A stretch of DNA of 64,000 nucleotides, taken from positions 138,092 to 202,091 of the forward strand of contig JBAYLA010000001.1 in assembly GCA_041664285.1 (NCBI GenBank), given 5' to 3'. How positions within the stretch are numbered: position 1 is the stretch's first letter; each line of letters starts with the position of its first letter. Position numbers and translations under genes: made by a program. The notes under the pieces are model-generated. The model saw only the letters and a list, made by a program, of their open reading frames with translations, was not told the origin of the DNA and did not search any database. The DNA comes from Minisyncoccota bacterium. Its GTDB lineage: Bacteria; Patescibacteriota; Minisyncoccia; Phycocordibacterales; UBA9973. Shown in pieces: positions 3,576 through 22,774 of this stretch.

Positions 3576-3599
3576 ATGATTTCAATATATACTATTTTT

Positions 3600-4817
3600 A
3601 TGTCGAAATCAATGCAAAAATTGAATAAAATTTACCTTGATTATGCAGCGAGCGTAGAAGCGAATCCTAGCTCTATCCACTCGACTGGCGTAGAAGCAAA
3701 GATAAAACTTCAAAATTCACGCAAAGTTGTCGCTAATATTTTAGGTGCTAGGCCGGAAGAAATAATTTTCACGAGCGGTGGAACAGAAAGCAACAATCTG
3801 GCAATTCAAGGTGTAGTTTTGGCTTGGCATAGAAAAGGGTTGCCACACATTATTACTACCAACATCGAGCATCCTTCAGTATTGAAAACTTTTAAATTAC
3901 TTGAGCAAAGAAAACTTGCGGAGATTTCAGTAATTGCAGTTGAACCAAACGGTATAGTAGATCCAAAAAAAATAAAAAAAGAAATAAAAAAAAATACAAT
4001 ACTTGTTTCAGTAATGTATGCTAATAATGAAATTGGCACTATTCAACCGATAAAAGAAATTGCGAAAGAAATTAGGCACTATAGAAAAATAAGTAAAAAC
4101 TTAACTCTACCAATATTCCACACAGACGCAGTGCAGGCAGTAAATTATTTAGATCTTAGCGTAGAAAAATTGGGTGTAGATTTACTTTCACTTTCTGGTT
4201 CAAAAATAGAAGAAGCCGGCAGGGTTGGAGTTCTTTATAAAAAGAACACAATTAAACTTGAGAAAATATTTGGTGGAGGAGATCAAGAAATGGGGTTACG
4301 TCCAGGAACAGAAAATTTGCCGGAAATTATAAGCTTTTCCAAGGCGCTAAAATTAACGCAAGATATGAAAGAGAAAGAAACAAAACGTTTAACCAAACTT
4401 CGAGATTATTTTATAAGTGAATTTCGCAGAATTATCTTTTTCTCAGGATCTCCTGCTTCGCAACGTCAACCATTCAAAAAAGATAATCCTGCTTCTTTCA
4501 TCATTAACGGGGATTTACAGAATAGATTGCCGAACAATGTAAATATAACTTTTTATAAAATTCCAAGTGATCTTTTGGTTATTGAACTTTCAGTGAAAGG
4601 AATAATGGCATCTTCGAAAAGTGCTTGCGAAAGTTCTAATGCCGAAGGTTCATATGTGATAAAAGCATTACGTAATGAGATGGGCTTGTCCTCCGAAGTT
4701 GGAGCGGGGGAGGGCGGAATGCGTTTTTCAATGGGCCGAAAAACCACCAAAAAAGATATAGATTATACGGTAAAAGCTTTATCTCAAATTTTGACTAAGT
4801 TAAAAAAGTGGTATTGA
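3600..4817 (+). CDS. cysteine desulfurase (class V aminotransferase, NifS/IscS-like). It carries an in-frame insertion of about 18 aa encoded by a palindromic repeat.
   Basis: YLDYAAS...SGGTESNN...H(T)DAVQA...SLSGSKI...SACESS...RFSMGRKTTKKDIDY. Start moved to the ATG at 3600; the track ORF begins at 3576, directly abutting the divergent gene. Confidence 0.85.
   Translation: MSKSMQKLNKIYLDYAASVEANPSSIHSTGVEAKIKLQNSRKVVANILGARPEEIIFTSGGTESNNLAIQGVVLAWHRKGLPHIITTNIEHPSVLKTFKLLEQRKLAEISVIAVEPNGIVDPKKIKKEIKKNTILVSVMYANNEIGTIQPIKEIAKEIRHYRKISKNLTLPIFHTDAVQAVNYLDLSVEKLGVDLLSLSGSKIEEAGRVGVLYKKNTIKLEKIFGGGDQEMGLRPGTENLPEIISFSKALKLTQDMKEKETKRLTKLRDYFISEFRRIIFFSGSPASQRQPFKKDNPASFIINGDLQNRLPNNVNITFYKIPSDLLVIELSVKGIMASSKSACESSNAEGSYVIKALRNEMGLSSEVGAGEGGMRFSMGRKTTKKDIDYTVKALSQILTKLKKWY
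4433..4498 (+). repeat. palindromic repeat element, 32-nt-core family, copy a, inside the cysteine desulfurase CDS
   Basis: AGAATTATCTTTTT-cTCAGGATcTCCTGCTtCGCAACGTCAACCATTc-AAAAAAGATAAT. It has 11-bp flanking inverted repeats and encodes FSGSPASQRQPFKKDNPAS, which is absent from IscS homologs at this position. Confidence 0.7.
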
Positions 4818-4842
4818 CAAAAGCCTTTATGGGGTATATAAT
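4814..4842 (+). promoter_or_regulatory. sigma70-type promoter TTGACA-N17-TATAAT (perfect consensus)
   Basis: TTGACA at 4814-4819, a 17-nt spacer, TATAAT at 4837-4842. An AAGGAG Shine-Dalgarno lies 8 nt upstream of the ATG at 4931. Confidence 0.7.
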
Positions 4843-4930
4843 TTAAGAGTAAAAAGAAAGTTTTTTGAAATTTTTATAAAATACGAAGCAATGGAGCTTC
4901 GTAAGCCTAAGTAAAAAAGGAGAAAAAACA

Positions 4931-5422
4931 ATGGATCAAGATTGTACTTTTGTAAAACGCGTTTGGGGTGACCGTCGGTGTGAACTCGCAGCAACGGATG
5001 GCAAGGAGACTCTTGCGGAAGCAAGGGATGTATTTATGATTATCGATAGTAGTATAAAGCCTCGAGTTAGTCAGATTAAGGCAACTCCTGTAACTCCCTT
5101 CACCATCTATCGAAAGTGTAAAGATGGGACACATGCTCAGGTTTTTAGTAGTTTTGGTGTAGACATGAAAAAGCTTTTATGGGAAGAAGAAAGTCAAATT
5201 ATAGCTTTCTCTCGCGACTATCGCGAAATTATGATTCAAGAGGACGTCAATAGTGGATTTTTCTTTCCCCTTAAAGATGATGGGGGATTCTCTGTTGTAA
5301 GTGTATTCGTGCGAAAAGGAGGTCTTTCTTTACACAAAGATTTGTTGTCTTACGAGGGTATATGGAAGGATGACGAAGAGTATAATTATTGTTATTTCTC
5401 TGTAATTCCTATGGTTCCTTAG
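4931..5422 (+). CDS. hypothetical protein (163 aa), locally elevated GC
   Basis: ORF with a strong promoter, a strong SD, and a downstream intrinsic terminator. No recognisable family. Confidence 0.6.
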   Translation: MDQDCTFVKRVWGDRRCELAATDGKETLAEARDVFMIIDSSIKPRVSQIKATPVTPFTIYRKCKDGTHAQVFSSFGVDMKKLLWEEESQIIAFSRDYREIMIQEDVNSGFFFPLKDDGGFSVVSVFVRKGGLSLHKDLLSYEGIWKDDEEYNYCYFSVIPMVP

Positions 5423-5454
5423 TTTTATTATAAGCCATTTCTCTGTTCGATTAT

Positions 5455-5490
5455 GAAAAACCGAACTGGAGGGACGGTTTTTCATTTTGC
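5455..5490 (+). terminator. Rho-independent terminator
   Basis: GAAAAACCG-aactggaggga-CGGTTTTTC followed by ATTTTGC. Confidence 0.6.
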
Positions 5491-5578
5491 CAATTTGAAA
5501 CTTTTTACCTTTTAAACTTATAAAAAATTTTGAATAAATTAAAAAAGTGGTATTAAAGCACTGCGATTTTGAAAGCTT

Positions 5579-5607
5579 TTGCAAAGATAAAAAATTGGGA
5601 GTATAAT
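5579..5607 (+). promoter_or_regulatory. sigma70-type promoter TTGCAA-N17-TATAAT placed for a leaderless transcript
   Basis: The -10 hexamer ends 8 nt before the ATG at 5616 and there is no Shine-Dalgarno sequence. Confidence 0.55.
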
Positions 5608-5615
5608 TACAGAAT

Positions 5616-6401
5616 ATGGACATTAAGGAATTAAATAAAACTCAACTTATATTATTGGCTATATTACTTAGTTTTATTACTTCCATAGCTACTGGTATAA
5701 CCACTGTGACTTTGATGCAACAGGCACCAGTCTCTTTCACCGCACCGATTAATCGCGTCGTTCAACAAACAATTGAAAAGATTCAGCAAGTGGAAGGAAA
5801 GACTACAGTGCAAACAGTAGTTGTGAAAGAAGAAGATTTAGTCGTGGATGCAATTGCAAAAAATCAATCCGCTGTTTTTTCTATAATTAAAGAAACCCAA
5901 GATTTAACTGGGGCAACCGTTGAAGTTGGAGCCGGACGGGGATTCGCAGTTTCTACTGATGGAATTATTGTGGCTGATGCTTTATCTGTTCCAGATAAAG
6001 GAGTTTATTATGTAAAAAATGATAGTGGAAAATTCAAAGCCGATTTTGTTTCTACCGATAAAGCGGGATTTTCTTTTCTGAACATAGGAGCCTCTGTCAA
6101 CGGTAAGGACAAACTTGTTTTCACTGTACCCGCCTTTGGAGATTTAGATAAAATGAAAACAGGACAGAAGGTTTTAGTTTTTGGTAGTAATATCTCTTCT
6201 TCTATTTTTGAAGGAGATAAAGATGTTAATATAAATGTTACAAAATCAAATACCGGAGGATTGGTCCTTAATTTAGACGGAGAAGCCCTTGGAATTGCTC
6301 TCTTTAGCGATACGACGAATTTTGCTTCAATCAAAACTATTAATGATGCCTTGAAAGCAATAACGCCTGCAAAGACAGACGTTACTTCTCCTAAAATCTA
6401 A
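5616..6401 (+). CDS. membrane-anchored trypsin-like (HtrA/DegP-like) domain protein, probably catalytically inactive
   Basis: N-terminal TM helix. GAGRGFAVSTDGIIVADA and SNTGGLVLNLDGEALGIA align to the HtrA GSGF...TNNHV and GNSGGPL...G..IGI blocks, but the catalytic His is absent and Ser is replaced by Thr. Confidence 0.5.
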   Translation: MDIKELNKTQLILLAILLSFITSIATGITTVTLMQQAPVSFTAPINRVVQQTIEKIQQVEGKTTVQTVVVKEEDLVVDAIAKNQSAVFSIIKETQDLTGATVEVGAGRGFAVSTDGIIVADALSVPDKGVYYVKNDSGKFKADFVSTDKAGFSFLNIGASVNGKDKLVFTVPAFGDLDKMKTGQKVLVFGSNISSSIFEGDKDVNINVTKSNTGGLVLNLDGEALGIALFSDTTNFASIKTINDALKAITPAKTDVTSPKI

Positions 6402-6441
6402 TAATATTTTTTACACTTGACACGTAGTGTATAATATAAAT

Positions 6442-9141
6442 ATGCCTCCATTGAATAAATTTACAACTAAAGCTAAAGACGCTATTAAGAAAGCCCATGA
6501 GCTGGCTATTGAACGTGGAGTAAACCATGTTTCTTCGCTTCATTTGCTTGGTGCGCTCTTACTGCAAGATGAATCAATGGTAAATTCGATTTTAGATAAA
6601 TTGGAAATTGACACCATGCTTTTAACAGATTCTGTTTTAGAATTAATTGAATTACCAGAATCACGTAGCACTATTTCACCGTCTTATCAGATTTATCTAA
6701 ACCCTGACTTGGCACAAGTTATTGAACAGTCAGCAAAATTAGCGGAATATATGAAAGATGATTTTGTTTCAACCGAACATCTTTTTATTGCTATCTTGGA
6801 AGTTACTAGCGAAGCCCGAGAAACTCTCGCGCGATTTAGAATTCACAAAGATCAAGTGATGAAAGTTTTAGAGCAACTTCGCAGTCAAAATATTACCGAC
6901 GTTTCTGAACCAAAGAAATTTAAATTATTAATAAAATATACTCGTAATTTAACCAAATTAGCCAAAGAAGATAAATTAGATCCAGTGATTGGTCGTGACA
7001 ATGAAATCACTCGTATCATGCAGATACTTTCGCGTCGAACAAAGAATAATCCAATTTTAATAGGCGAAGCTGGAACTGGCAAAACTGCAGTGGTGGAGGG
7101 GCTCGCTCAAATGATTATAAAAAATAATGTTCCCGAATCTCTAAAAGACAAAGAAGTTGTTTCACTTGATTTAGGATTACTGGTGGCTGGGACAAAATAT
7201 CGTGGAGAGTTTGAAGAGAGGTTGAAGGGGATTATGAAAGAAATTGAACGATCTGATGGAAAAATAATTCTTTTTATTGATGAAATACATACAATCGTTG
7301 GGGCTGGGGGAGCAGAGGGTACGATGGATGCTTCGAACATGTTGAAGCCGGCACTTTCTCGTGGAGAACTTCGAGCTATTGGCGCGACGACCCTGCGAGA
7401 ATATCAAAAACATATTGAAAAGGATCCTGCTCTAGCTCGTCGTTTTCAGCCAGTTTATATCGATGAACCTGGAATAGAAGATGCTGTAGCTATTCTTCGT
7501 GGTCTCAAAGAGAGATATGAACTTTTTCACGGAGTTAGAATTACCGATGACGCAATAGTTTCGGCTGTGAATCTTTCTTCTCGATATATCACAAACAGAT
7601 TTTTACCAGACAAAGCGGTTGATTTAATAGACGAAGCTTCTTCTTCCTTGAAAATAATGCTTGAGAATAAACCTCCAGTTTTAGAAGATGCCCATAGAAA
7701 AATAATGCGTCTAGAAATTGAAAAAGAAGCTCTGAAAAAAGAAATTAATTCTAAAGGAGAAGAGACAAAAGATAAACAAAAGGACAAAGAAATAAAAAGT
7801 AGAATTAAAGAAATTGATAAAGAAATAGGTAATTTAACCGAAAAAACAAAAGAACTTGAATTAAAATGGGCTAATGAAAAGCAAACTGTGGTTGAAATTC
7901 GAGCTATTAAGAAAGAAATAGAAACTATTCGCCTGGAGGCTGAAGACGCAGAAACAAAAGCCGACCTTTCAAAAGCAGCTGAAATACGTTATGGAAAAAT
8001 TCCGACATTACAAAAAGAACTTGAAGTAAAACTGGCGCGACTAAAAAAATTACAAAAATCACGCAGAATTTTAAAAGAAGAAATTACGGTTGAAGATATT
8101 GCCGAAGTGGTTTCTCGTTGGACAGGTATTCCTCTTACCAAAATGCTTGAAGGAGAGCGTGCCAAACTTGAGAAAATGGAACAAGAACTGAAGAAACGAG
8201 TCTTGGGTCAAGACGAGGCGATAAAACGTGTTGCAGACGTAATTAGGCGTTCTCGTGCGGGTATTTCGGATCCAAACAGACCAATTGGCTCCTTTATCTT
8301 TTTAGGTCCGACTGGAGTTGGTAAGACAGAACTTACTAAGACAATCGGTCAGTTTTTATTTGACGATGAAAGTGCAATTATCCGAGTTGATATGTCTGAA
8401 TACACAGAGAGACATTCAATGTCTAAACTCATTGGTTCTCCTCCTGGATATGTGGGTTATGATGAGTCCGGTCAGCTGACAGAGGCTGTTCGCCATAGGC
8501 CTTATGCAGTTATACTATTTGATGAAATTGAAAAAGCTCATCCAGAAGTTTTCAATATCCTTCTACAGGTTATTGATGAAGGACGCTTGACCGATGGAAA
8601 AGGAAGAGTAGTTAATTTCAAAAATACTATTATAATTTTGACTTCTAATATCGGTTCACAATTTGTAGAAAAAATGGAATCAATTGGATTTTCTAATAAT
8701 TCTCAAAAACAAGATTACAGTAACATGAAAGAAAAAGTGATGGAAGCGCTGAAAGAAAATTTCCGTCCAGAATTTTTGAATCGCCTAGACGAGGTTGTTG
8801 TCTTTGATGTTTTATCAGAAGAAGCTCTCAGGGAAATAGTTAATTTGCGAATCCAAGTAGTTGCTGATCGTCTGAAGAGTAAAGGGATAAATTTTGGAAT
8901 TTCTGACGAAGCCCTGTCTCTTTTGGCTAAAGAAGGTTACGATCCACATTTTGGTGCGAGACCCCTTAATCGTTTAATTCAGAGCAAGATTTTAAATTCA
9001 GTTGCTACTTTTATAATTTCAAACAAAGTCTCAAAAGGGGATACTGTTTATGTTTCGGTAAAAAATAAAGAATTTGTGATTGAAGCCAAAAAGGGCAAAA
9101 TTAAAAGTTCTATTCGAGTCCGAACTCCTTTGTCGACTTAG
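6442..9141 (+). CDS. clpB: ATP-dependent chaperone ClpB
   Basis: Two AAA+ modules ([28 protein letters not shown]) and a long coiled-coil middle domain. The track ORF starts at a GTG at 6427; the ATG at 6442 (MPPLNKF...) is preferred. Confidence 0.92.
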
Positions 9142-9148
9142 ATTTTTG

Positions 9149-9219
9149 TGCGAGTAGGGGGAATCGAACCCCCGTCTAATCCTTGGGAAGGACTCATTCT
9201 ACCACTAAACCATACTCGC
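9149..9219 (-). tRNA. tRNA-Gly (anticodon CCC)
   Basis: Reverse complement GCGAGTATGGTTTAGTGGTAGAATG-AGTCC-TTCCCAA-GGATT-AGAC-GGGGGTTCGATTCCCCC-TACTCGC-A. Confidence 0.85.
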
Positions 9220-9264
9220 ATATTATGTTATAATAGCTTATTACAAATTATTTTCAATATTTTT

Positions 9265-9498
9265 ATGCAAAAGGTAACAATTTATTCAACTCCGTCTTGT
9301 CATTTTTGCCATCTGGCGAAAGATTTTTTTACGGCAAATGGTATCGTTTATACAGAGTATAATGTTGCGAGTGATTTAGAAAAAAGAAAAGAAATGATAG
9401 AAAAAAGTGGCCAAATGGGCGTGCCAGTTATAATCATAGGAGATGAAATCACTGTTGGTTTTGATAAGCCCAAGATAGCAAAATTGCTTGGACTTTAA
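9265..9498 (+). CDS. glutaredoxin-like protein (NrdH/Grx family)
   Basis: MQKVTIYSTPSCHFCHLAKDFF... has a CxxC motif and a thioredoxin-fold signature (GVPVIIIGDE). The track ORF 9148.. reads through tRNA-Gly, so the real start is the ATG at 9265. Confidence 0.75.
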   Translation: MQKVTIYSTPSCHFCHLAKDFFTANGIVYTEYNVASDLEKRKEMIEKSGQMGVPVIIIGDEITVGFDKPKIAKLLGL

Positions 9499-9527
9499 TA
9501 TCCATCTAATATATTATTGCTCTTATA

Positions 9528-9599
9528 GCCCTCGTAGTTCAATGGATAGAACAGTTCCGTCCTAAGGAATAGATGCACGTTCGATTCGTACCGAGGGCA
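9528..9599 (+). tRNA. tRNA-Arg (anticodon CCT)
   Basis: GCCCTCG-TA-GTTCAATGGATAGAAC-A-GTTCC-GTCCTAA-GGAAT-AGAT-GCACGTTCGATTCGTAC-CGAGGGC-A, with one mismatch in the T stem. Confidence 0.8.
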
Positions 9600-9635
9600 C
9601 AAATTTTAATATTATTTATGTTATAGTACTTCTTT

Positions 9636-10454
9636 ATGGACAAATTGTTTAATAAGACAAATTCATTAGTAGAAACAGATTCTTCGTCGAAGACTATTGC
9701 CTCTAAGCTTTCAGATCTAATTGATTCTGGAGACAGTGTTGATTCAACTGTTTTAATGAGTGCTTTAGAAAAAGAAGAAATTACTCAATATCAATATATT
9801 ACTTTAGCTAATCAGCTTATGAAGAAAGGTGAGTGGACCGAAGACGCTCTTGCCAATGTAGGGAAAAAACTTGGAGATCAAATTGAAGGACTTGGGATTG
9901 ATCCTGTTACTAATCTTATGAGGTCTAATTTTTTAGAAGAAAGATTAGATCGTCTAATAAAAGAGTTAAATTTCAAATTAACCCCAGAAAAGAAACGCAG
10001 CTCTCCTTTATTTGCTGTTATGGTTATAGCTATAGACGTCGATAATTTAAGGATATGGAATACATATGGTCATGCTGTTGGCGACAAAGCATTGCGAATA
10101 ATTGCAGATTCTGTTAAAGAAGTAATTCGAGATGATGACGGTGCATTTCGTTTAGGTGACAAATCGGATGAAATTATAGTAACGATGAGAATTACACAAG
10201 ACCTAGAACCTTCTAAATTAGAAGAAATTTTTCGGCGAGTCAAACATAAATTAAATAGTAAATTTATAGAAATTGATAATATCAAGTTACCAGTTACAGT
10301 TGCTGCAGGGTGTGCAATATTGAAACCAGGAGAATCAAGAAAAAATAAAGAAATAATTCATGCCGCTGACCTAAATCAAGCAACGGACAAAACACTTGAA
10401 GTCAAAGAAGAAAGAATAAAGAAAGCTACAGTAAACTTAAATAAACTAAATTAA
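9636..10454 (+). CDS. GGDEF-domain protein with a degenerate active site
   Basis: IDVDNLRIWNTYGHAVGDKALRIIA matches the GGDEF-domain core, but the GG(D/E)EF motif is replaced by RLGDKSDEI. Confidence 0.5.
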   Translation: MDKLFNKTNSLVETDSSSKTIASKLSDLIDSGDSVDSTVLMSALEKEEITQYQYITLANQLMKKGEWTEDALANVGKKLGDQIEGLGIDPVTNLMRSNFLEERLDRLIKELNFKLTPEKKRSSPLFAVMVIAIDVDNLRIWNTYGHAVGDKALRIIADSVKEVIRDDDGAFRLGDKSDEIIVTMRITQDLEPSKLEEIFRRVKHKLNSKFIEIDNIKLPVTVAAGCAILKPGESRKNKEIIHAADLNQATDKTLEVKEERIKKATVNLNKLN

Positions 10455-10496
10455 GCAACCCTTTTAAATTATTTTATTTTGTGCTAAATTAGCTTT

Positions 10497-10769
10497 ATGG
10501 ATCCTGAGTCCAAAAAATTACTAGAAGAAACTTATAGGCTTACAGAGGAGAACAATCATATGCTCCGCAAAGTCAGAAATGTGCAGAGGTGGAGTGTTTT
10601 CTGGTCTAGTTTGAAGATTGTTTTAGTAATTGGAATTGCCTTAGGTTTGTTTTACTTTTTGGAACCATATATAGAAAAGATGATTAGTTTATATAATTCT
10701 GTTTCTGGGACAACTGGAAATATGAATTACAACAGCAGTTCTTTTCAGGATTTATTGAAAAAGTTTTAG
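10497..10769 (+). CDS. small membrane protein, hypothetical
   Basis: 90-aa ORF with one TM helix. Its 3' end contains a partial copy (CTTTTCAGGATTT) of the 32-nt repeat core. Confidence 0.4.
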   Translation: MDPESKKLLEETYRLTEENNHMLRKVRNVQRWSVFWSSLKIVLVIGIALGLFYFLEPYIEKMISLYNSVSGTTGNMNYNSSSFQDLLKKF

Positions 10770-10774
10770 AATAT

Positions 10775-10846
10775 GCCTGGGTAGCTCAGTAGTAGAGCGT
10801 TCCCCTGAAGAGGGACAGGTCGGGTGTGCGATCCACCCCCCAGGCA
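10775..10846 (+). tRNA. tRNA-Phe (anticodon GAA)
   Basis: GCCTGGG-TA-GCTCAGTAGTAGAGC-G-TTCCC-CTGAAGA-GGGAC-AGGTC-GGGTGTGCGATCCACCC-CCCAGGC-A. Confidence 0.85.
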
Positions 10847-10847
10847 C

Positions 10848-10931
10848 AAAAAAAGTAGTAGAATTTTCTTTTTTCAGGATTTCCTGCTACGCAACGTCAA
10901 CCATTTTAAAAAAAAATTCTACTACTTTTTT
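10848..10931. repeat. palindromic repeat element, 32-nt-core family, copy b, intergenic
   Basis: A perfect 20-bp inverted repeat AAAAAAAGTAGTAGAATTTT / AAAATTCTACTACTTTTTTT encloses CTTTTTTCAGGATTTCCTGCTACGCAACGTCAACCATTTTAAAAA. Confidence 0.75.
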
Positions 10932-10951
10932 TGCAACTGAATAAACCTCAA

Positions 10952-11443
10952 TTAGATTGATTTTACCTTAACAGTATTTTTCTTTTCTTTGTCTACTTTT
11001 TTGATTTTAATGGTGACTAGACCATGCTTTTCTGTTGCTTCAACTTCTTCTGGCTCTACTTCTGTAGGGAGGGATATTGTTCGTGAAAACTTACCCCAAT
11101 AAAGTTCTTTGGTAAAATAATTATCTTCATCGATATTTCTATTTTCTTCGCGTTTACCACGGATGGTGACGATATCTCGAGCAATTGATAATTCTAAATC
11201 TTCCGGCTTAACTCCAGCTATCATTGTTTGAATAACGATATCAGTTGGTGTCTGGTAAACGTCTATTGATAATTCTGCTTCTTCGTTTTCTTCTTCAATC
11301 CAGTTGTTATTCTTTTTGTTTTCGTTGTTGTCTTTTATACTTTCTAAATAACTTTTTTTAGAAGTTAATTCTTCTTCAGCGTTGACGCTTCCAGTTAATC
11401 TTTCAAAAAAACTTCTTTTTTTATTTTCCATAGATTTACTCAT
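10952..11443 (-). CDS. Hsp20/alpha-crystallin family small heat-shock protein
   Basis: ACD-domain signature ...DIVIQTMIAGVKPEDLELSIARDIVTIRGKRE...FSRTISLPTEVEPEEVEATEKHGLVTIKIKK. Confidence 0.8.
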   Translation of the reverse strand: MSKSMENKKRSFFERLTGSVNAEEELTSKKSYLESIKDNNENKKNNNWIEEENEEAELSIDVYQTPTDIVIQTMIAGVKPEDLELSIARDIVTIRGKREENRNIDEDNYFTKELYWGKFSRTISLPTEVEPEEVEATEKHGLVTIKIKKVDKEKKNTVKVKSI

Positions 11444-11451
11444 TATTTTAT

Positions 11452-12159
11452 CTAATAATCTTCGCTTATTCTTCTAACTTTTTCAAAAAGTAACATAAGT
11501 ATAATTGTGACGACCCACAAAAATGCTAAAACCTTCAAAAAATCATTTCCAGCATTTCTTATTATAAAAAAATTAAAGGTACTATGCAAGCTAATAGCAA
11601 TTAAAAACCCGACAAAAAGAAAACTTACTCTTTTCCATTTTGCTGCATAGAAGGAAATGCCTATTGAAATACCTATTATTCCACTAGAAATAGCATGCAG
11701 GAGATTAGCACCTAGAAATCTTAGATTACCTGTGCTTAAGCTTGGAATGGCTCCGATTGCTGAAGGAAAGATTTTCAGTAGAAATAGCATATTTTCCAAA
11801 GCAGCAAAACCTAAGGCAGCGGTGATTAGGCATATCGGCCAATCTATTGGCTTAGAGGCATTATTTGTTTTGTATATTATTAGTAATACAGCAAGATATT
11901 TTAATATTTCTTCTACGCTAGCCCACAACACAAGTTGGCCTCCATGAAAGTTTACATGATCTTGAATAAATTTTTGAATTGGCAAGACGATTATGACCGC
12001 TAACATACCTGTAATAAATACGACAGAGATTAGTCCTGTGGGCTCAGCTTGTTCTCCTTCTTCTTCTTTTAGCCAAAACCAAAGCCATAAAAGGGGAGGA
12101 ATAATTCCTCCTAAAAATGCTAAACATAAAATTTTTGGATCTGTTGCTAGGAGGTTCAT
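11452..12159 (-). CDS. PrsW-family intramembrane metalloprotease-like protein
   Basis: Multi-TM protein with EEILKYL, GFAALENMLF and RFLGANLLHAISSG motifs that resemble the PrsW signature blocks. Confidence 0.5.
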   Translation of the reverse strand: MNLLATDPKILCLAFLGGIIPPLLWLWFWLKEEEGEQAEPTGLISVVFITGMLAVIIVLPIQKFIQDHVNFHGGQLVLWASVEEILKYLAVLLIIYKTNNASKPIDWPICLITAALGFAALENMLFLLKIFPSAIGAIPSLSTGNLRFLGANLLHAISSGIIGISIGISFYAAKWKRVSFLFVGFLIAISLHSTFNFFIIRNAGNDFLKVLAFLWVVTIILMLLFEKVRRISEDY

Positions 12160-12164
12160 AGAAC

Positions 12165-14339
12165 TTAATTAGAAGCGAAAGGCCACTTTTCAACCATCAG
12201 GATAGTTTTATTATTTGGGAGCATCGACCAAATTTCTTCTGTGACAAATGGAATAAATGGGTGAAGAGCTTTCAAGAGGGTCGCTAACTGTGTAAGCAGA
12301 AGTATTCTTGCTGAATCGGCACTTACAGTATCTTTGACATTTTTATTTGCTAAAATTTTCTTTTTTGATCGTTCGATGATAACGTCTGCGAAAGTGTGCC
12401 AGAAATAATGATAAAGCTTTTCTGCAACAAGCGAGAACCTGTATTCATTCATCTCTTTTGTAGTTTCTTTTAGTAATTTATTTAATTCTTCTTCGCTCTT
12501 TTTATCTTCTTCATCTAGAGTTGTTGTTTGAAGGGAATCGAAATCTTTTGTTTGTTCTAAAACAAACCTCGAAGCATTCCAGACTTTATTGGTAAATTTA
12601 GCATAACCTCGAATATCATTTTCATTCAATTTTAAATCATTTCCTGGAGTATTGCCGATAATCATTGCCATACGTAATGCATCGTTTCCATATTTTGCCA
12701 CTATGTCAAGTGGGTCAACAGCTTTATTTCCCAAAGATTTAGACATTTTTTTACCGTCAGCAGTGCGAACCATACCATGAAAATATACGGTTTTAAACGG
12801 GACTTCTCCAACGAGGTATTGAGACATTAGAATCATTCTAGCGACCCAGAAAAAAATAAGATCATGACCTGTTTCAAGAATTGTTGTTGGGTGGTAGCTT
12901 TTTAAGTCGTCTGTCTTTTTTGGCCATCCTAATGTTGAGAAAGTCCAAAGTCCTGAAGAAAACCAAGTATCTAGAGTATCTTCATCTTGAGTCCAACCAT
13001 CTTCTTTGGGGGCTTCAATCTCGCAATAAATTTCATTATTTTTATACCAGACTGGAATTCGATGCCCGTACCAAATCTGACGAGAGATACACCAGTCTTG
13101 TAAATTTTCAATCCAATTAAAATAAACTTTTTCAAAATGAATAGGCATTATTTTTATTTTACCTTCGCGGACAGGTTCCAGCATTAAGTCTTTGAGAGAT
13201 TTATTGTCTCGTCTAGCAATTTTTTTATTGACGTCCACGAACCATTGCAACATAATTTGTGGCTCAATCATACCGTTGGTGCGTTCAGCTGTAGCGACTC
13301 TATTGATATAATTTTCATCTACAGAAACAAGTAGGCCTTTATTTTTTAATTTATCAACAATTTTTTCTCTGGCATCGGTAATTTTCATTCCATTAAATTC
13401 TCCGGCGATAGGCAAAAGCTTTCCATATTTATCAATGATTTGTTCTTTGTCTAATTTATGTCTTTCAGCAATTTCAAAATCAATAGCACTATGCCAAGGG
13501 GTGATAGTCATTACCCCTGTGCCGAATTCCATATCTATTGCTTCATCTTTTACAATTGTGGCTTCAATTGGGCCGTTGATCCACTCTAGTTTTATTTTTT
13601 GACCATCTGTGTACTTGGCATACCTTTTGTCTTTTGGATGCATGACGACATATTTATCTCCAAATTTTGTTTCTGGGCGGACAGTACTTATTTCAAAAGG
13701 TCCATATCTAAAAGTGTAAAATTTATTTTTGCGTTCCTCGTAAACTATTTCATCATCAGAAATAACTGTTTGTCCTTTTGGATCCCAATTTACCATTCGG
13801 TGTCCACGATAGATTAATCCATCGTCATACATTTGTTTAAATGCAGTGCGGACGGCTACATTGCGATCTTCGTCTAAAGTAAAGGCTTCTCTAGACCAAT
13901 CTAATGAGGCTCCCATCTTTTTTGCTTGATTCACTATGGTATCATGAGATTCATTTGCAAATTGCTCCACTCGTTTTAAGAATTCTTCACGTCCTAAGTC
14001 ATTTTTTCTTATTCTATCTTTTTCCAATATTTTTTCTACCTTTGATTGAGTGGCAATAGCAGCATGGTCTGTTCCCGGGAGCCAGAGAGTTTTTTTACCT
14101 TGCATACGGGCGTAACGTACCATAATATCTTCTATTACCAACATAAGGGCGTGCCCAGTATGTAAATTGCCGGTTACGTTTGGAGGGGGAAGAACAATGG
14201 AAAAATGTTCTGCATCAGTTTTGGTTATTCCTTTTTCTATGCATACATCCGGGTTAAAAAAACCTGACCCCTCCCAAAGTTTATAGATTCTTTCCTCTGT
14301 ATTTTTAGGGTCGTAGGGCTTGAGAAACTTTTCGTTCAT
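12165..14339 (-). CDS. valS: valyl-tRNA synthetase (short form without the C-terminal coiled coil)
   Basis: PPPNVTGNLHTGHA (HIGH motif), KMSKSLGN (KMSKS motif), DTLDTWFSSGLW. Confidence 0.88.
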   Translation of the reverse strand: MNEKFLKPYDPKNTEERIYKLWEGSGFFNPDVCIEKGITKTDAEHFSIVLPPPNVTGNLHTGHALMLVIEDIMVRYARMQGKKTLWLPGTDHAAIATQSKVEKILEKDRIRKNDLGREEFLKRVEQFANESHDTIVNQAKKMGASLDWSREAFTLDEDRNVAVRTAFKQMYDDGLIYRGHRMVNWDPKGQTVISDDEIVYEERKNKFYTFRYGPFEISTVRPETKFGDKYVVMHPKDKRYAKYTDGQKIKLEWINGPIEATIVKDEAIDMEFGTGVMTITPWHSAIDFEIAERHKLDKEQIIDKYGKLLPIAGEFNGMKITDAREKIVDKLKNKGLLVSVDENYINRVATAERTNGMIEPQIMLQWFVDVNKKIARRDNKSLKDLMLEPVREGKIKIMPIHFEKVYFNWIENLQDWCISRQIWYGHRIPVWYKNNEIYCEIEAPKEDGWTQDEDTLDTWFSSGLWTFSTLGWPKKTDDLKSYHPTTILETGHDLIFFWVARMILMSQYLVGEVPFKTVYFHGMVRTADGKKMSKSLGNKAVDPLDIVAKYGNDALRMAMIIGNTPGNDLKLNENDIRGYAKFTNKVWNASRFVLEQTKDFDSLQTTTLDEEDKKSEEELNKLLKETTKEMNEYRFSLVAEKLYHYFWHTFADVIIERSKKKILANKNVKDTVSADSARILLLTQLATLLKALHPFIPFVTEEIWSMLPNNKTILMVEKWPFASN

Positions 14340-14379
14340 ATATTTCTATAATATCATATTTATCCTGACCCGAGAAGGG

Positions 14380-15534
14380 TTAGAGCCTTAGGCCACCAGT
14401 TGCTTTTAGATTCTTTATTTTCGTAAACTTCTTTTTGTTTTTTATATAATTTAAGTATCCAGCAATACCAATCATGATAGAATTATCTCCCGAAAGTTCT
14501 TTGGGAGGGAAATAGATTTTGATTTTTTTTCCGCCAGAGGCGGATCCGCCTATGGCGGACATTTCGTTCCGAAGGTATTTATTAGCAGAGACTCCTCCCG
14601 CCACGATCAGAGTTTTAACTTTATATGTCTCAATGGCTTTAGCTGTTTTATAAACCAAGCATTCCATTGCAGCATTTTCGAATTCTAGAGCTATTTTGCT
14701 TTTTGTTTCTTCACTTATATTTTTTATTCCGCCAAGATCTCTAATTAAATAAAGCACGGCCGTCTTTAATCCAGAAAAAGAGAAATCAAAATTTTTACTG
14801 CGAAGCATAGGACGGGGAAGAGCTATAGGGGGAGTTTTGGCCGAGCCTGTATGCTTCTGTGAATGGTTGACGTTGCATAGCAGGAAATCCTGAGCAGAAG
14901 CATCAGGCTTGGCCAATCTTTCTTTCTCGGCTAATTTTGAAATCTGTGGTCCGCCTGGGTAGGGAAGGTCTAGCATTCTAGCGACTTTGTCGAAAGCTTC
15001 TCCAACTGCGTCATCGAGTGTCTCCCCAATAATTTCATAATCCATCCATTTTTTCATCAGAACTAGTTGCGTGTGCCCACCAGATATGAGCAATGCCAGA
15101 GTGGGTGTTTGTAATTTTTCTATTTTGAGAGTTCCCTTATTTTTACCAAAAACAGAAAGGATATGTCCCTCCATGTGATTGGTGGGGATCAAAGGTACGT
15201 TCCATTTTTTTACCAAATCTTTTGCAAAAGTAATACCTTCCCAGAGGCACATTTCTAAACCCGGACCATAAGTTACAGCTATGGCATCTACCGGCTTTTC
15301 TTTTTTATTCAACTTTACTTGTTTCAAACTTTTTTCTAATAAGATTGGTAAATTTTTAGCGTGTTCTCTTTTAGCCAGCACAGGAAAAACTCCTCCATAG
15401 GGAATATGAATGTTTACTTGAGAGTTTAAATTATTAGCCAAGACCCTAAAGGAAGGGTTTTTAACCCCTCCTTTTACCTCCAATATACTTACTCCAGTGT
15501 CATCGCAAGATGTTTCAATCGAAAGTATTTTCAT
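14380..15534 (-). CDS. tsaD: tRNA N6-adenosine threonylcarbamoyltransferase TsaD (Kae1/YgjD family). It carries an in-frame insertion of about 25 aa encoded by a palindromic repeat.
   Basis: MKILSIETSCDDTGVSIL..., HMEGH, ...LDLPYPGGPQISKLAE...LPRPM...DFSFSGLKTAV. Start taken at M12 of the track ORF. Confidence 0.88.
   Translation of the reverse strand: MKILSIETSCDDTGVSILEVKGGVKNPSFRVLANNLNSQVNIHIPYGGVFPVLAKREHAKNLPILLEKSLKQVKLNKKEKPVDAIAVTYGPGLEMCLWEGITFAKDLVKKWNVPLIPTNHMEGHILSVFGKNKGTLKIEKLQTPTLALLISGGHTQLVLMKKWMDYEIIGETLDDAVGEAFDKVARMLDLPYPGGPQISKLAEKERLAKPDASAQDFLLCNVNHSQKHTGSAKTPPIALPRPMLRSKNFDFSFSGLKTAVLYLIRDLGGIKNISEETKSKIALEFENAAMECLVYKTAKAIETYKVKTLIVAGGVSANKYLRNEMSAIGGSASGGKKIKIYFPPKELSGDNSIMIGIAGYLNYIKNKKKFTKIKNLKATGGLRL
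14853..14912. repeat. palindromic repeat element, 32-nt-core family, copy c (reverse orientation), inside the tsaD CDS
   Basis: The reverse complement reads GCCTGATGCTTCTG-cTCAGGATTTCCTGCTAtGCAACGTCAACCATTcA-CAGAAGCATaCAGGC. It encodes ...ASAQDFLLCNVNHSQ... within a loop that is about 25 aa shorter in E. coli TsaD. Confidence 0.7.
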
Positions 15535-15672
15535 AAAATGTGTCTTTACTATATCAAGATTGAGCATTTTTTCAAAATCATTAATTAATGAAATATTTCG
15601 CGCGCGTTTTGTGAATTTTTGAAGTAAAATAATGCGATTGCCTAGTAATTTAACAAATGTTAAGATATTCCT

Positions 15673-16993: not shown

Positions 16994-17406
16994 GCCTCCC
17001 GATTATAGCAATAAATAGAAAAAATAAAAATTATGATAAAGAAAATAAGTCCGTAAGAACAGGTTGGTAAACCGAGTGAGTAGTTGGTATCGACCCCAGA
17101 GAGGAGTATTTGAACTTCAGGAATCGTGAAGTATCCAGCAAAGAGAATTCCCATACCCGATACAACAGTCGTAATTATTAACATAACTTTTTCTGAAATA
17201 GTTTTTAGGAGTCCGAGTGTAGCTGAAAGGAAGATAATAAGGAACATTCCGAAGCCAAAATAACAAGCTGGATATCCTAGGAAGTAAGGACAAGGTTCAT
17301 TAAAGGCACAAGTGGCAGTAAAGAATTTTGTCGCACTTAAATATCCCGAGAACAAAACCCCTGCTAATCCAAGAAAAAACATTGTTTTATTATATGATTT
17401 TTTCAT
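16990..17406 (-). CDS. cysteine-containing integral membrane protein (possible VKOR/DsbB-like thiol oxidoreductase; uncertain)
   Basis: Four predicted TM helices with a C-x6-C pair (TCAFNEPC) in the first loop. No clear CxxC motif, so the family assignment is weak. Confidence 0.3.
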   Translation of the reverse strand: MKKSYNKTMFFLGLAGVLFSGYLSATKFFTATCAFNEPCPYFLGYPACYFGFGMFLIIFLSATLGLLKTISEKVMLIITTVVSGMGILFAGYFTIPEVQILLSGVDTNYSLGLPTCSYGLIFFIIIFIFSIYCYNREA

Positions 17407-17474
17407 ATAGTTTTTAATTAAATTATTAATGTATTTATTATACCTCTTTTTAACCTTCTAGTGCATATGTAATC

Positions 17475-18209
17475 TTAGTAAAGATTATCTCTCCCAAATT
17501 GAATCATCGTTAAAACATGCCCCTTTCCATTGTGTCTAACCACTTTAGTTTTTATTTTCTTTTTCATTAACTCTGCAATTAATTCTTCTCCATAAATCGT
17601 TGGAATATAGAAATCATGTGTTGCTAAATGTATTTCAATATTTTCTGGTAGATTATCTAGATTTTCAATAGGATTGGTGTCAGCAAGCAAAGAATCATAT
17701 TGTTCTCCATTTTCAAAACCAAGTGAGACCGCTCTCTTTTTAATACACTGACTTGCCATTCCTTTATAGATACAAGCACCCAATTTTGAACCTGGAGTTA
17801 CCGCAACCAATTTATCAACATTAAAATGATTGGCAATATAAAAACTAGGATATGCGCCAATGCTTAGACTTAAAACATTAAAATTATTTAAATTTAACGT
17901 TTTCAGATCATCCACTAATCTTTTCAACAAAACAATGGCAACAGATGGATCAGGGTTAGCAACACCTATAGGACCTTCATATGTTATGACTCTGCCATTC
18001 TTAGGAATTAGACCTAATTGAAGAGCTTGTTTAAAATTAACTCTCCATGGCAAAAAACAGACCCAAGTAGGGGAATCTCCATTTCTAATATCTGTTCTAA
18101 AATAATTTTCATCTCCAATTTCTTTCTCTCTTGATCCACTATTCTTTTTTGCATAGATTTTATCTAGTAAGCCGTAATCTTTTATTTTTGATAATAAATA
18201 ATTAAGCAT
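17475..18209 (-). CDS. alpha/beta-hydrolase fold protein
   Basis: Nucleophile-elbow-like LSLSIGAY and a C-terminal HNGKGH block; 244 aa. Confidence 0.4.
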   Translation of the reverse strand: MLNYLLSKIKDYGLLDKIYAKKNSGSREKEIGDENYFRTDIRNGDSPTWVCFLPWRVNFKQALQLGLIPKNGRVITYEGPIGVANPDPSVAIVLLKRLVDDLKTLNLNNFNVLSLSIGAYPSFYIANHFNVDKLVAVTPGSKLGACIYKGMASQCIKKRAVSLGFENGEQYDSLLADTNPIENLDNLPENIEIHLATHDFYIPTIYGEELIAELMKKKIKTKVVRHNGKGHVLTMIQFGRDNLY

Positions 18210-18235
18210 ATGTTTCTCGTGCTAGCACTTGATGG

Positions 18236-18290
18236 TGACCCTAATTATACGGAATTGGAACTTTATTTTTAATCAAATAAAAGGATTTTC
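18236..18290 (+). repeat. 55-bp direct repeat, left copy; resembles a degenerate tRNA-Glu 3' end (att-like)
   Basis: GTGACCCTAATTATACGGAATTGGAAC...AATCAAATAAAAGGATTTT is about 85% identical to 18878-18934. It begins with GTGACCCTA, the same 9 nt as the 3' acceptor end of tRNA-Glu(TTC) at 25259. Confidence 0.6.
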
Positions 18291-18311
18291 TAAAATACAA
18301 TTTTATATATA

Positions 18312-18349
18312 AAAACAGAAGGCCTCGCATAGAACGAAGAGCGAGGCTC
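18312..18349 (-). terminator. Rho-independent terminator (minus strand)
   Basis: On the minus strand: GCCTCGC-TCTTCGTTCTAT-GCGAGGCC followed by TTCTGTTTTT. It lies 35 nt downstream of the stop of ORF 18384..18773. Confidence 0.6.
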
Positions 18350-18383
18350 CTGTCTGTGCGAGGCTTGATACTTGGAGATCTGG

Positions 18384-18773
18384 CTATGGGAGGTTCGTGG
18401 GAGGTTTCATGAAGGAGTAGCCTACGCTGAATCCTTGACGAAAAATGACTACCAGCTCGAAGGACGACTCCTTCATTCCTGGCTCGTAGAGGGAAAGATC
18501 CACGAAAATCTGGTTTATCCACTCGCTCAGTACGACTGTCATCCGGTTCGAGTTCCTGAAGACTGCCAAGAGATAATTCCTCTTAACGCCTTCGGGGCGC
18601 AGGTATTCTCCCAAGAAATCCTTGAACTTTTCGTCGATGTCGTCTTTCGCTCCGGTCATGTTCTGTATGAACGAGAACGGAAAGCTCGACGCACTTTTTA
18701 GGACTGGGCTATCTTTCCACGCATTCCACTGTACCCAGAGCTTCGGATCGATCGAAGTGTTGATCTTTTTCAT
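18384..18773 (-). CDS. hypothetical protein (129 aa) in a GC-rich (about 50%) 0.6-kb cassette
   Basis: It is the only ORF in the cassette whose orientation matches the downstream terminator. Its composition is foreign relative to the flanks. Confidence 0.4.
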   Translation of the reverse strand: MKKINTSIDPKLWVQWNAWKDSPVLKSASSFPFSFIQNMTGAKDDIDEKFKDFLGEYLRPEGVKRNYLLAVFRNSNRMTVVLSEWINQIFVDLSLYEPGMKESSFELVVIFRQGFSVGYSFMKPPTNLP

Positions 18774-18877
18774 AATTTTCCCTTTCTAAGGAAGGCTTAC
18801 TACGGCCTGTACGGGACCCGACGTTGTTGTCAGGTTGTCCGTTATATTTTTAACACTATTATTAGCTCGTGTCAATT

Positions 18878-18934
18878 TGTGACCCTAATTATACAGAATT
18901 GGAACCACATTTTCAATCAAATAAAGGATTTTGC
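18878..18934 (+). repeat. 55-bp direct repeat, right copy (att-like)
   Basis: GTGACCCTAATTATACAGAATTGGAACC...AATCAAATAAAGGATTTTG. Confidence 0.6.
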
Positions 18935-18988
18935 GTTTTAATATAAATTGCCCTTATCCTAAAATTAGTGTAAAATGAGCTCATAACT

Positions 18989-19246
18989 ATGGATGAAAAT
19001 TACAGAAGGGTAAAATTTAATGACGTTTTTGATGAGAAGCCCGATGGGTCTTTATCTCCCAAAGTACCCATTGAAATAAATGGCGTAAATTTTAATTCTG
19101 GAACCACTTTTTCCAAAGGGGTTGTTTTTGGTGGTATCGATTTTCACCTCTATAAGAATCGAGATATAGCAATCCAAAATTCTGAAGTACCTGAAGAAAA
19201 TACTGATAGTACTGTATTTCACATAGTTGGTTTTTATAAAGAATAA
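18989..19246 (+). CDS. hypothetical protein (85 aa), element-borne
   Basis: Track ORF; first of three tightly packed co-directional small ORFs. Confidence 0.35.
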   Translation: MDENYRRVKFNDVFDEKPDGSLSPKVPIEINGVNFNSGTTFSKGVVFGGIDFHLYKNRDIAIQNSEVPEENTDSTVFHIVGFYKE

Positions 19247-19251
19247 ATAGT

Positions 19252-19611
19252 ATGGCCGATAAAAATCCTACAAAAACTGAAATCCTAGGAACGGTACAAG
19301 CTCAAGCAGAAACTTTAAAAGAATTATCTGAGCGCCTTGTAAAGATTGAAGGTCAAACGGAAAAACAAGAATCAAGAAATCAAAACATAATATATGCGGT
19401 ACTTTTCGCGCTTGCATTTATCGTAGTAACTGTTAGTGTTGAAGTTATACTATCGAGTAAAAGTGATAATTCTGTCGCTAATGATTTTTCTGAAAAACTT
19501 TTCAATATACAAGAAAATACAAACAACAAAATGAATGGTTTACAGAGCACAATAAATAGTATTCAAAGTGAAATTTTATTATTAAGAGCAAAAAATCCTT
19601 ATTTAAAATAA
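19252..19611 (+). CDS. hypothetical coiled-coil membrane protein (119 aa), element-borne
   Basis: Track ORF with a central TM helix flanked by coiled-coil-like segments. Confidence 0.35.
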   Translation: MADKNPTKTEILGTVQAQAETLKELSERLVKIEGQTEKQESRNQNIIYAVLFALAFIVVTVSVEVILSSKSDNSVANDFSEKLFNIQENTNNKMNGLQSTINSIQSEILLLRAKNPYLK

Positions 19612-19613
19612 AT

Positions 19614-19898
19614 ATGAAATCATATACCGTTAGAATTGAATTGCAAAATTCTGTTTTGGGAGATTACGAATCTCTTCATGTCGCAATGGAATCCGCTGGC
19701 TTTAGGAAGTTTATTATTTCAGATCAAGGTATTAAATACAAACTTCCAAATGGGGAATATAATATTTCTGGTAATTTTGATAGGGCAACAATTTTATCTT
19801 TGGCGAAAAGTGCAGTTACAACTACAAATAAAACTGCAGAGATATTGGTAACAGAGTCAAGTGGACGAACTTGGGCTAATCTGAAAGTTATAAAATAG
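19614..19898 (+). CDS. hypothetical protein (94 aa), element-borne
   Basis: Track ORF starting 3 nt after the preceding stop. Confidence 0.35.
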   Translation: MKSYTVRIELQNSVLGDYESLHVAMESAGFRKFIISDQGIKYKLPNGEYNISGNFDRATILSLAKSAVTTTNKTAEILVTESSGRTWANLKVIK

Positions 19899-19908
19899 TT
19901 TATAGATA

Positions 19909-21072: not shown

Positions 21073-21073
21073 A

Positions 21074-22264: not shown

Positions 22265-22530
22265 ATGTATCCTAACTTATGTTGAGAATTATAGCTGTTT
22301 TGGTTCCAAATTGCTAATGGTATTGACGCCATGAAATAGTTTAATGCCTAACCTGTCTTTTGGATTGACTTTTCGGAAAAAAAAGTGTACACTGTTATGG
22401 TAATAACAAAGAAGTTATCACAAAGCAAGTTTGAGTCAAAAGAATTTTAGAGAGAACTGGGACATAACCAGTTTTTTTATTTTTTAGGGAGATAACTCTC
22501 TAAAAAAAACAAAACAACGCACGTTTTTTA

Positions 22531-22566
22531 AAGCCCTCTTGAGCGAAATCCCGAGAGGGCTTTTTG
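22531..22566 (+). terminator. intrinsic terminator-like hairpin (bidirectional)
   Basis: GCCCTCT-tgagcgaaatccc-gAGAGGGC flanked by a T-run and an A-run. Confidence 0.5.
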
Positions 22567-22619
22567 CGTTTCCGTGTGGGCGCAAAATGCGTAATGGGTT
22601 TCGTTCTTTATAGCCGTAT

Positions 22620-22720: not shown

Positions 22721-22774
22721 GGACGAGCGAAGCGAGTCCGTTGGACTTGATTATACCCACACTTAAAGAGAAAT

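Follow-up and report, generated by a model that had tools for sequence, protein, structure and literature searches.

A hairpin-forming repeat with a conserved loop and variable arms in housekeeping genes of Patescibacteria

Introduction

A stretch of contig JBAYLA010000001.1, whose proteins are named Candidatus Paceibacterota by NCBI, raises the question of how one short palindromic sequence comes to lie within two unrelated housekeeping genes and again between genes. This stretch, referred to here as the window, is 64 kb long with 32-36% G+C, and contains three copies (a, b and c) of a hairpin-forming element built around the 32-nt core TCAGGATTTCCTGCTACGCAACGTCAACCATT. The initial annotation of the window described a palindromic element that enters coding regions and behaves like the Rickettsia palindromic elements (RPE), and this description is supported by the dispersal of the element, its insertion polymorphism, and the intact open reading frames (ORFs) of the genes that carry it. 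The element has been copied to new chromosomal sites and belongs to a wider set of hairpin cassettes of the same architecture; it is probably a palindromic DNA insertion element, non-autonomous and found in Patescibacteria (class Paceibacteria and relatives), which essential enzymes tolerate in their variable loops.

Three copies in the window

The three occurrences are 94-100% identical to the core, somewhat closer than the ~90% of the initial annotation, which had recognised all three, and none is expected by chance (0 in 100 dinucleotide-preserving shuffles of the window). Copies a and c are in housekeeping genes and copy b is intergenic, as first described. Although copies a and c are on opposite strands of the window, as had been noted, both are sense relative to the host gene; they are read in different frames, giving SGSPASQRQPF in copy a and QDFLLCNVNHSQK in copy c. 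Every copy folds into a hairpin with the core in its loop (folding z-scores of the core strand -4.0, -6.3 and -6.2 for copies a, b and c), and the unit lengths are about 69, 87 and 80 bp respectively. The arms are longer than the inverted repeats of 11, 20 and 9+5 bp reported previously, and are corrected here to 16, 26 and ~23 bp (Table 1).

Table 1. Coordinates of the element copies, their host and neighbouring genes, and other features of the window.
Feature	Coordinates	Strand	Description
Copy a, hairpin	4425-4493	+	Wholly within the IscS-like gene; read as RRIIFFSGSPASQRQPFKKDNPA; covariance-model score 81.9 bits
Copy a, arms	4426-4441 / 4477-4492	+	16 nt, 94% complementary
Copy a, core	4443-4474	+	2 mismatches
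Copy b, hairpin	10847-10933	+	Intergenic, between tRNA-Phe and the hsp20 3' end; covariance-model score 80.3 bits
Copy b, arms	10847-10872 / 10908-10933	+	26 nt, 96% complementary
Copy b, core	10874-10905	+	0 mismatches
Copy c, hairpin	14837-14916	-	Wholly within tsaD; read as RLAKPDASAQDFLLCNVNHSQKHTGSAKTPP; covariance-model score 75.4 bits
Copy c, arms		-	~23 bp with one bulge
Copy c, core	14862-14893	-	1 mismatch
IscS-like gene	3576-4817	+	Host of copy a; class-V aminotransferase (IscS/NifS-like cysteine desulfurase); Pfam PF00266 (Aminotran_5), E 1.8e-52; PDB homologues
tRNA-Phe (GAA)	10775-10847	+	3' end adjoins the left arm of copy b
hsp20	10952-11443	-	Pfam HSP20 on the orthologue in the related locus L027; copy b just 3' of the stop codon
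tsaD	14380-15567	-	Host of copy c; Pfam PF00814, E 1.6e-77; PDB alignment; 14380-15534 with the NCBI start codon (384-aa protein)
Second hairpin family	39599-39702	+
Second hairpin family	~48140-48260	+
Second hairpin family	~50262-50380	+
Second hairpin family	~32590-32700	-
Second hairpin family	~57945-58075	-
GmrSD/HNH endonuclease	19909-21072		Mobile island
EcoRI-like adenine methyltransferase	21074-22264		Mobile island
HUH rolling-circle Rep	22775-23593		PF23343; HFH and YISKY motifs
Large serine recombinase	23618-25297		Mobile island
Mini-hairpins, tandem pair	14530-14559		In tsaD; encode GGSASGG; coincide with a second spot of low predicted local distance difference test (pLDDT) score, residues 332-334
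Third mini-hairpin	49431-49463		In ORF 49293-50252; adjoins CCAGCC-TCT-GGCTGG

Copy b begins at the final base of tRNA-Phe, ends 19 nt short of the stop codon of the convergent hsp20 gene, and is bordered by an A-run before it and a T-run after it. It is not flagged by a simple terminator scan, because its loop is longer than 8 nt.

All three copies fall within 10.5 kb (4443-14893). A covariance-model search finds no copy in the other 49 kb of the window, and there is none in the 10 kb past its downstream end, as represented by L031, a contig of another assembly with an identical ATP synthase A gene; a search with the IF2 of the window for sequence on the upstream side gave no match. By a rough calculation three copies would cluster in this way with a chance of ~7%, and the clustering may therefore mean nothing.

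Copies in other Patescibacteria

Further copies exist, and the similarity is thus not limited to the three window sites. Scanning one genome per species for exact matches at 20 core positions recovered five real copies, in metagenome-assembled genomes labelled Nomurabacteria and Saccharibacteria, together with four chance matches in high-G+C genomes, and a 22-position exact scan of metagenome contigs added 13 further loci. Two copies were found without an exact core match, one (L026) by whole-protein homology and the other (L016:4342-4411) by the covariance-model search. The total is 19 distinct copies at 11 insertion sites, 16 of them beyond the window in several Patescibacteria assemblies, and this occurrence in many independent assemblies leads us to reject an assembly or adapter artefact.

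Eighteen of the 19 copies are intragenic, and all 18 are sense, in-frame and free of stop codons. According to Pfam the ten housekeeping hosts are the IscS-like desulfurase (Aminotran_5), TsaD, YchF, Tgt, leucyl-tRNA synthetase (LeuRS), MnmA, the CCA-adding enzyme (CCA/PolyA_pol), a Mur ligase, PurH and PolA, and the set of host genes varies between genomes; in one pair of LeuRS orthologues only 57% identical the element occupies the same site. The core is read as QDFLLRNVNHSQK at seven sites and as SGFPASQRQPF at three. A protein motif, an explanation that we considered, is rejected because one stretch of DNA is read in two frames; the repeat exists at the nucleotide level. Six-frame translation of the core shows all three sense frames open and a stop codon in every antisense frame, which explains why genic copies are found in the sense orientation only.

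The core is missing from the viral contigs scanned, from plasmids and from E. coli genomes, and phages yield one 20-nt chance match; descent of the loop from some universal RNA gene is thereby rejected. When the 31-aa window peptide was compared with 1.84 billion representatives, the sole match was a spurious tandem-repeat ORF (P0241). In Rfam only tRNAs reach the gathering score, and a permissive search returns generic long-hairpin miRNA models far below threshold.

The element might instead be removed or skipped at the RNA or translation level, either by intron-like excision at the base of the stem or by a bypass like that of the mitochondrial 'byps' of Magnusiomyces. The long stem would draw both flanks of the host mRNA together, and yeast mitochondrial coding regions contain G+C-rich palindromic clusters that translation can bypass (PMC8811140). 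However, the genic copies at ten independent gene sites are all in-frame, stop-free and sense, a constraint that neither excision nor bypass would impose, the total insert length always preserves the downstream frame, and no ribozyme or intron family is matched. We consider this explanation very improbable.

The insert in the host proteins

Every genic copy keeps its ORF intact, in agreement with the initial annotation, which had also placed both window insertions in loops about 18-25 aa longer than in E. coli IscS and TsaD. PDB alignments bear this out: TsaD residues 205-236 stand where Salmonella TsaD (3zet_B) has residues 190-194, a net gain of ~27 aa, and the IscS-like protein has roughly 17 residues extra at its insertion site relative to 9wep_A. 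The extra peptides are absent from distant orthologues. Judging from the intact frames, the insert would be translated and add about 17-27 residues to the host protein, with DASAQDFLLCNVNHSQK as the predicted insert peptide of TsaD. In the AlphaFold model of TsaD (mean pLDDT 84.6), residues 213-234 score below 50 and have no secondary structure, so that the modelled insert looks like a low-confidence excursion from an otherwise confident fold.

Empty and differing sites in a close relative

The closest relative with a long contig is represented by L027, a 21-kb syntenic locus with 72-93% protein identity to the window. Among 11 orthologous proteins, large internal differences are found only at the IscS and TsaD sites, and the element is absent from L027 at all three window sites. 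Site b is empty, the L027 sequence running from the tRNA through CCAGGCAC directly into CAAAATATTT, and therefore ~87 nt, including both 26-nt arms, have been inserted in the window. At its IscS site L027 has an unrelated 30-nt palindrome encoding FHSNILTNYRM, and at its TsaD site another hairpin cassette, SIAQAVEPSIANFQQKIMCAES.

Two other differences distinguish these loci. About 800 bp following the IscS-like gene (window 4818-5615) are missing from L027, including a 163-aa ORF (4931-5422) that matches nothing in Pfam or PHROG. Window positions 9528-10454, which lie between the glutaredoxin gene and a 90-aa ORF, contain a tRNA-Arg (CCT) and a GGDEF-domain gene (9636-10454), and no gene is called in the matching L027 interval.

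A conserved loop within variable arms

The unit is ~65-87 bp long, with complementary arms of 16-26 nt around a comparatively G+C-rich loop of 33-34 nt, CTCAGGATTTCCTGCTNYGCAACGTCAACCATTC. The 19 copies can be aligned without gaps over 69 columns, in which 26 of the 32 core columns are invariant and the loop variation is concentrated at one position, where all four bases are found. The arms differ among copies, most of the outer 12 arm columns having no majority base. At the loop-proximal end, the left arm has a T-run and the right arm an A-run in nearly all copies (CTTTT.../...AAAAG), and arm columns 13-16 are U-A in 12-17 of 19 copies.

Pairing of the arms is nonetheless kept in register, with 82% of cells paired versus 62% when shuffled and 39-54% in slid controls. 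Both sides have changed in 15 of 18 arm pairs, and there are 91 compensatory cells where 34 are expected, a number reached by none of 500 shuffles. Entire arms recur at unrelated positions: GCCTGATGCTTTTGC / GCAAAAGCATACAGGC is found in five genes (tsaD, ychF, leuS, cca and purH) and AGAATTTTCTTTTT is common to copy b and the IscS copies. The arms are thus inherited along with the core. We rejected the possibility that arms are made from the target at insertion, given that whole arms are common to unrelated genes and that the empty site b has neither arm; homing with co-conversion of the flanking gene was rejected likewise, as arms and adjacent codons have diverged.

Pairwise comparisons at orthologous sites in iscS (5 copies), mnmA (4) and ychF (2) give a core divergence of 3-6% at all positions, compared with 19-42% in the arms and 50-58% at flanking third codon positions, the loop diverging about five times less than the last of these.

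Weighing the insertion element against a functional module

Several of these observations count against interpretation as an insertion element. The divergence of the core at third codon positions (8-12%) is too low for a passively decaying selfish relic. This figure has to be read with some caution, in that most copies came from an exact match to 20-22 core positions and the estimate of core conservation is therefore biased, being partly a search effect. Even so, the two copies found independently of such a match have two core changes each relative to the consensus, none of the four altering the amino acid in the frame that is read. In cassette families collected only by TsaD homology (see below), too, loop peptides are as conserved as the flanking enzyme and arm peptides are variable. 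A slow-evolving or frequently renewed loop is real, its degree being uncertain.

A second point concerns strand asymmetry. Arm mismatches on the mRNA strand are A.C in 31 cases and G.U in 10, and in the inner 14 bp of the arms the sense-strand counts are 24 and 5 (p = 5e-4), which hints at selection on one strand. Because the mismatches are mostly A.C on the mRNA strand, the complementary strand is the more stable as RNA; this holds for 15 of 19 copies when only the arms are folded (Wilcoxon p = 0.0013) and for all 19 when the entire element is. The asymmetry could stem from selection favouring a structure on the antisense strand, from selection against a hairpin too stable for the mRNA being translated, or from a strand-biased mutation process.

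The remaining points are of a different kind. Copies are few (3 per 64 kb, 0 in the adjacent 10 kb), no target motif is visible at the insertion borders, and no target-site duplication is seen at the borders of seven aligned subfamily copies or on comparison of site b with its empty counterpart. No mobilising enzyme for the element was identified; specifically, no transposase was found among the 34 window ORFs scanned, 23 of them directly and 11 through precomputed Pfam matches on L027 and L031 orthologues.

The main rival, prompted by a loop more conserved than is expected of a decaying relic, is a functional nucleic-acid module: a structured RNA or single-stranded DNA signal, under purifying selection, with a 33-nt loop to which a protein or complementary RNA binds. 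It could possibly serve as a regulatory or processing site common to housekeeping genes, or act as a hairpin on the antisense strand. Such a role would accommodate the low divergence of the loop relative to flanking synonymous sites in all three genes compared, the confinement of most loop variation to one position, the covarying arms, the mismatch asymmetry that favours antisense-strand folding, and the conservation of loop but not arm peptides in the homology-sampled families. It also gains from the distant leuS orthologues, which keep the element with two synonymous changes in one core, from six of the ten host genes acting on tRNA, and from a second hairpin family of the same architecture in the window that is purely intergenic. 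But the closest relative keeps the same genes and lacks the element at all three window sites, the host genes vary from genome to genome, and in sister lineages the same protein loops hold unrelated cassette loops in both orientations, so that a given site does not depend on any one loop. Moreover, there is no Rfam match, the conservation estimate is mostly biased by exact-pattern searching, and template-switch correction can yield compensatory changes in DNA palindromes without selection. We judge a functional module unlikely, with an appreciable chance of being right, and retain the tolerated insertion element as the probable explanation.

TsaD and IscS loops as insertion hot-spots

The TsaD and IscS loops are hot-spots for several related cassette families in most Paceibacteria. 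The YPGG-to-FSFSGLKT segment of the 120 closest TsaD homologues is empty-like in length (43-49 aa) in 17, intermediate (50-64 aa) in 5, in the one-cassette length class (65-85 aa) in 93, and in the two-cassette length class (106-112 aa) in 5. The IscS site in 120 homologues is empty-like in 26, with 53 in a short-insert class and 41 in a long-cassette class. At least 103 of 120 TsaD and at least 94 of 120 IscS homologues are thus longer than the empty-like form.

Many apparent peptide families collapse into a few DNA families that are read in both orientations and several frames. For example, the reverse complement of the GVSQADGPRGSAP loop gives GSLSPLASGALPLGPSACET, and the other strand of the RGRNFSAEKFTQSSGRRPAES element gives GTPQGDGPRTE.IFQQKN. 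Every cassette examined at the DNA level is a long hairpin. Cassettes at one site differ between related lineages, may be in either orientation, and also occur in tandem. One sister family, FSGPRF...PARPFKKESF, is present at both the TsaD and IscS sites, has the same loop ends (TCAGG...ACCATTC) and the same T-run/A-run arms as the window family, and scores weakly (23.9 bits) with the covariance model. At the IscS site near-identical arms enclose either the window-family loop or the sister loop, and 'empty' sites hold short A/T-rich quasi-palindromes.

The LeuRS genes offer two side observations. In L007:3031-6093 a Pfam NUDIX match lies within the synthetase (residues 420-523), and the LeuRS of L016 (3889-6966) aligns through that segment. 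The L016 LeuRS also has an extra 29-aa insert directly upstream of the hairpin element, including SHPEGEG, which resembles the IscS-site cassette RGSHSEGEGRRGKK.

The repeats might instead be products of hairpin-prone mutation with no dedicated enzyme, through template switching between dispersed quasi-palindromes at stalled replication forks, with loops copied by way of T-run/A-run microhomology. A T-run on one side of the core and an A-run on the other are found in all families, and this proposal would draw as well on the quasi-palindromes already present at 'empty' sites, on the variation of cassettes at one site among related lineages, in either orientation and in tandem, on the presence of one or the other loop within near-identical arms at the IscS site, and on the failure to find a target-site duplication or transposase. 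Against this, unrelated genes share whole 20-26-nt arms in addition to loops, and both 26-nt arms of copy b are missing from the empty L027 site. It is a quite improbable alternative, although it overlaps the insertion-element interpretation and differs from it only in the mechanism of copying.

A broader proposal is that Paceibacteria carry exchangeable hairpin cassettes, whose structured 33-65-nt loops are kept uniform by selection or directed copying and are recognised by a trans-acting factor. Each loop would sit between arms specific to its copy, either in one of the few loops of essential enzymes that permit insertion or at an intergenic site, and the factor, perhaps an HUH-type endonuclease or RNA-binding protein, would act on the complement of the mRNA strand. 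If so, the genic copies would be landing pads or signals of an undescribed mechanism, beyond tolerated junk. We regard this proposal as rather unlikely.

How the element may be copied and retained

As a tolerated insertion element, the repeat would be selfish in nature and would give the host protein no benefit; it may be retained since its exact removal from an essential gene is improbable, so that insertion acts as a ratchet. Either selection for the hairpin or correction of quasi-palindromes by template switching could keep the arms complementary, and copying presumably uses the hairpin. A conserved loop in a variable stem suggests recognition of the folded single strand, and one candidate route is a trans-acting enzyme, such as an HUH-type endonuclease, that recognises the loop in single-stranded DNA. 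In a second candidate route, dispersed hairpins would undergo template switching or gene conversion with one another by way of the T-run/A-run arm ends, which fits those ends, the differing cassettes, the tandem arrangements and the occurrence of both orientations. Either route would leave uniform loops alongside drifting arms.

Comparison with known palindromic elements

RPE (RPE-1 to RPE-10) are interspersed palindromes of small, A+T-rich, host-dependent genomes that are found both intergenically and in-frame within housekeeping genes, and some insertions are common to whole lineages, for example in an aminoacyl-tRNA synthetase (PMC10969869, PMC1779305). The window element is likewise an interspersed palindrome, located intergenically and in-frame in unrelated housekeeping genes to which it contributes a peptide, with no known transposase. 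The likeness is in behaviour, with no relationship in sequence asserted or seen, and by description the element is set apart from RPE: it is from another phylum, and is 65-87 bp rather than 100-150 bp in length. A single conserved peptide frame is a criterion for RPE, whereas two frames are used here and up to six in sister families. The window element also has a conserved loop with variable arms and compensatory changes, and a few protein loops serve as hot-spots with differing cassettes in related lineages.

The GC clusters of yeast mitochondria make in-frame insertions (var1), merge and shuffle, form tandem arrays, and are recombination hot-spots (PMC8811140). They resemble the window element as short G+C-rich palindromes in an A+T-rich genome that can lie in-frame in a coding gene. 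However, their substitutions accumulate especially in the loop (PMC8811140), whereas the loop is the most conserved part of the window element (4-6% divergence versus 19-42% in the arms). The AG/TAG terminal repeats of GC clusters, taken as target-site duplications, are not found in the window element, and the setting is an organelle rather than a bacterial chromosome. The element behaves like RPE and GC clusters and by these features appears to belong to neither.

[quoted passage not shown] Repetitive extragenic palindromic (REP) elements are extragenic imperfect palindromes of 20-40 nt with a conserved stem and a 5' GTAG, accompanied by a REP-associated tyrosine transposase (RAYT) gene, and in both REP and IS200/IS605 systems mobilisation is by HUH enzymes, which recognise single-stranded DNA hairpins. 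The window element is similarly small, non-autonomous, hairpin-forming and dispersed. Unlike MITEs, its arms differ between copies and no target-site duplication was found, a conserved loop with drifting, compensated arms being the reverse of the classical MITE. Unlike REP elements, it has a variable stem and conserved loop, and 18 of 19 copies of the window family are intragenic; no Y1 transposase is present among the window ORFs scanned. The origins used by HUH Rep proteins, in circular Rep-encoding single-stranded DNA (CRESS-DNA) viruses and rolling-circle plasmids, are hairpins with a stem that may vary and a loop that includes the conserved sequence for recognition and nicking. The element resembles them in architecture, but the loop here is 33 nt rather than a nonanucleotide, and the Rep island of the window (see below) has no near-match to the core.

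Full-text literature searches turned up no account of palindromic elements inserted in-frame in genes of the Candidate Phyla Radiation (CPR) or Patescibacteria, and such elements have so far been a curiosity of Rickettsia and fungal mitochondria. The same behaviour in CPR would suggest recurrence in small A+T-rich genomes rather than the oddity of one lineage. The system is useful for questions of mechanism, both for its conserved loop and variable arms, with one DNA family in both orientations and several frames, and for its TsaD and IscS loops, which exceed the empty-like form in about 80-85% of the closest homologues. The cassettes inflate and diversify the 'lineage-specific insertions' of CPR proteins and can mislead alignments and phylogenies built from marker genes; they are also presence/absence markers for strain-level population genetics of uncultivated bacteria.

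Other elements in the window

A second hairpin family of the same architecture is represented by five purely intergenic copies (Table 1). It has a ~62-nt conserved structured core, GGGGTTTCGAGGCTGTCGAGCCGAGAACTTCAGGATTTTTTAAGCTTCAAAAAATCTGTACC, within copy-specific arms of 23-30 bp, and for each of the five the GGGG... orientation gives the better fold. Rfam holds no match to it; a 16-mer, AGGCTGTCGAGCCGAG, is common to this family and the L027 TsaD cassette.

An integrated mobile island (~17400-25350) adjoins a tRNA gene (25260-25331) and is located 8 kb from the hairpin elements. Several island ORFs have no family match, and G+C-rich nested hairpins are present upstream of rep (22540-22760). 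We considered whether the core is the origin of the Rep island and rejected this, as there is no near-match (≤3 mismatches) in the island or elsewhere in the window; nothing was found that links the HUH Rep to the hairpin elements.

The window also has three G+C-rich mini-hairpins of the form TCCGCC-NNN-GGCGGA where 0.01 are expected, and these look like a separate class of micro-palindromic in-frame insert. Finally, the gene for a peptidoglycan-binding-domain protein (44321-45814, - strand) contains tandem direct repeats of ~200-220 bp with 76-94% identity (families D1, D5, D6 and D9).

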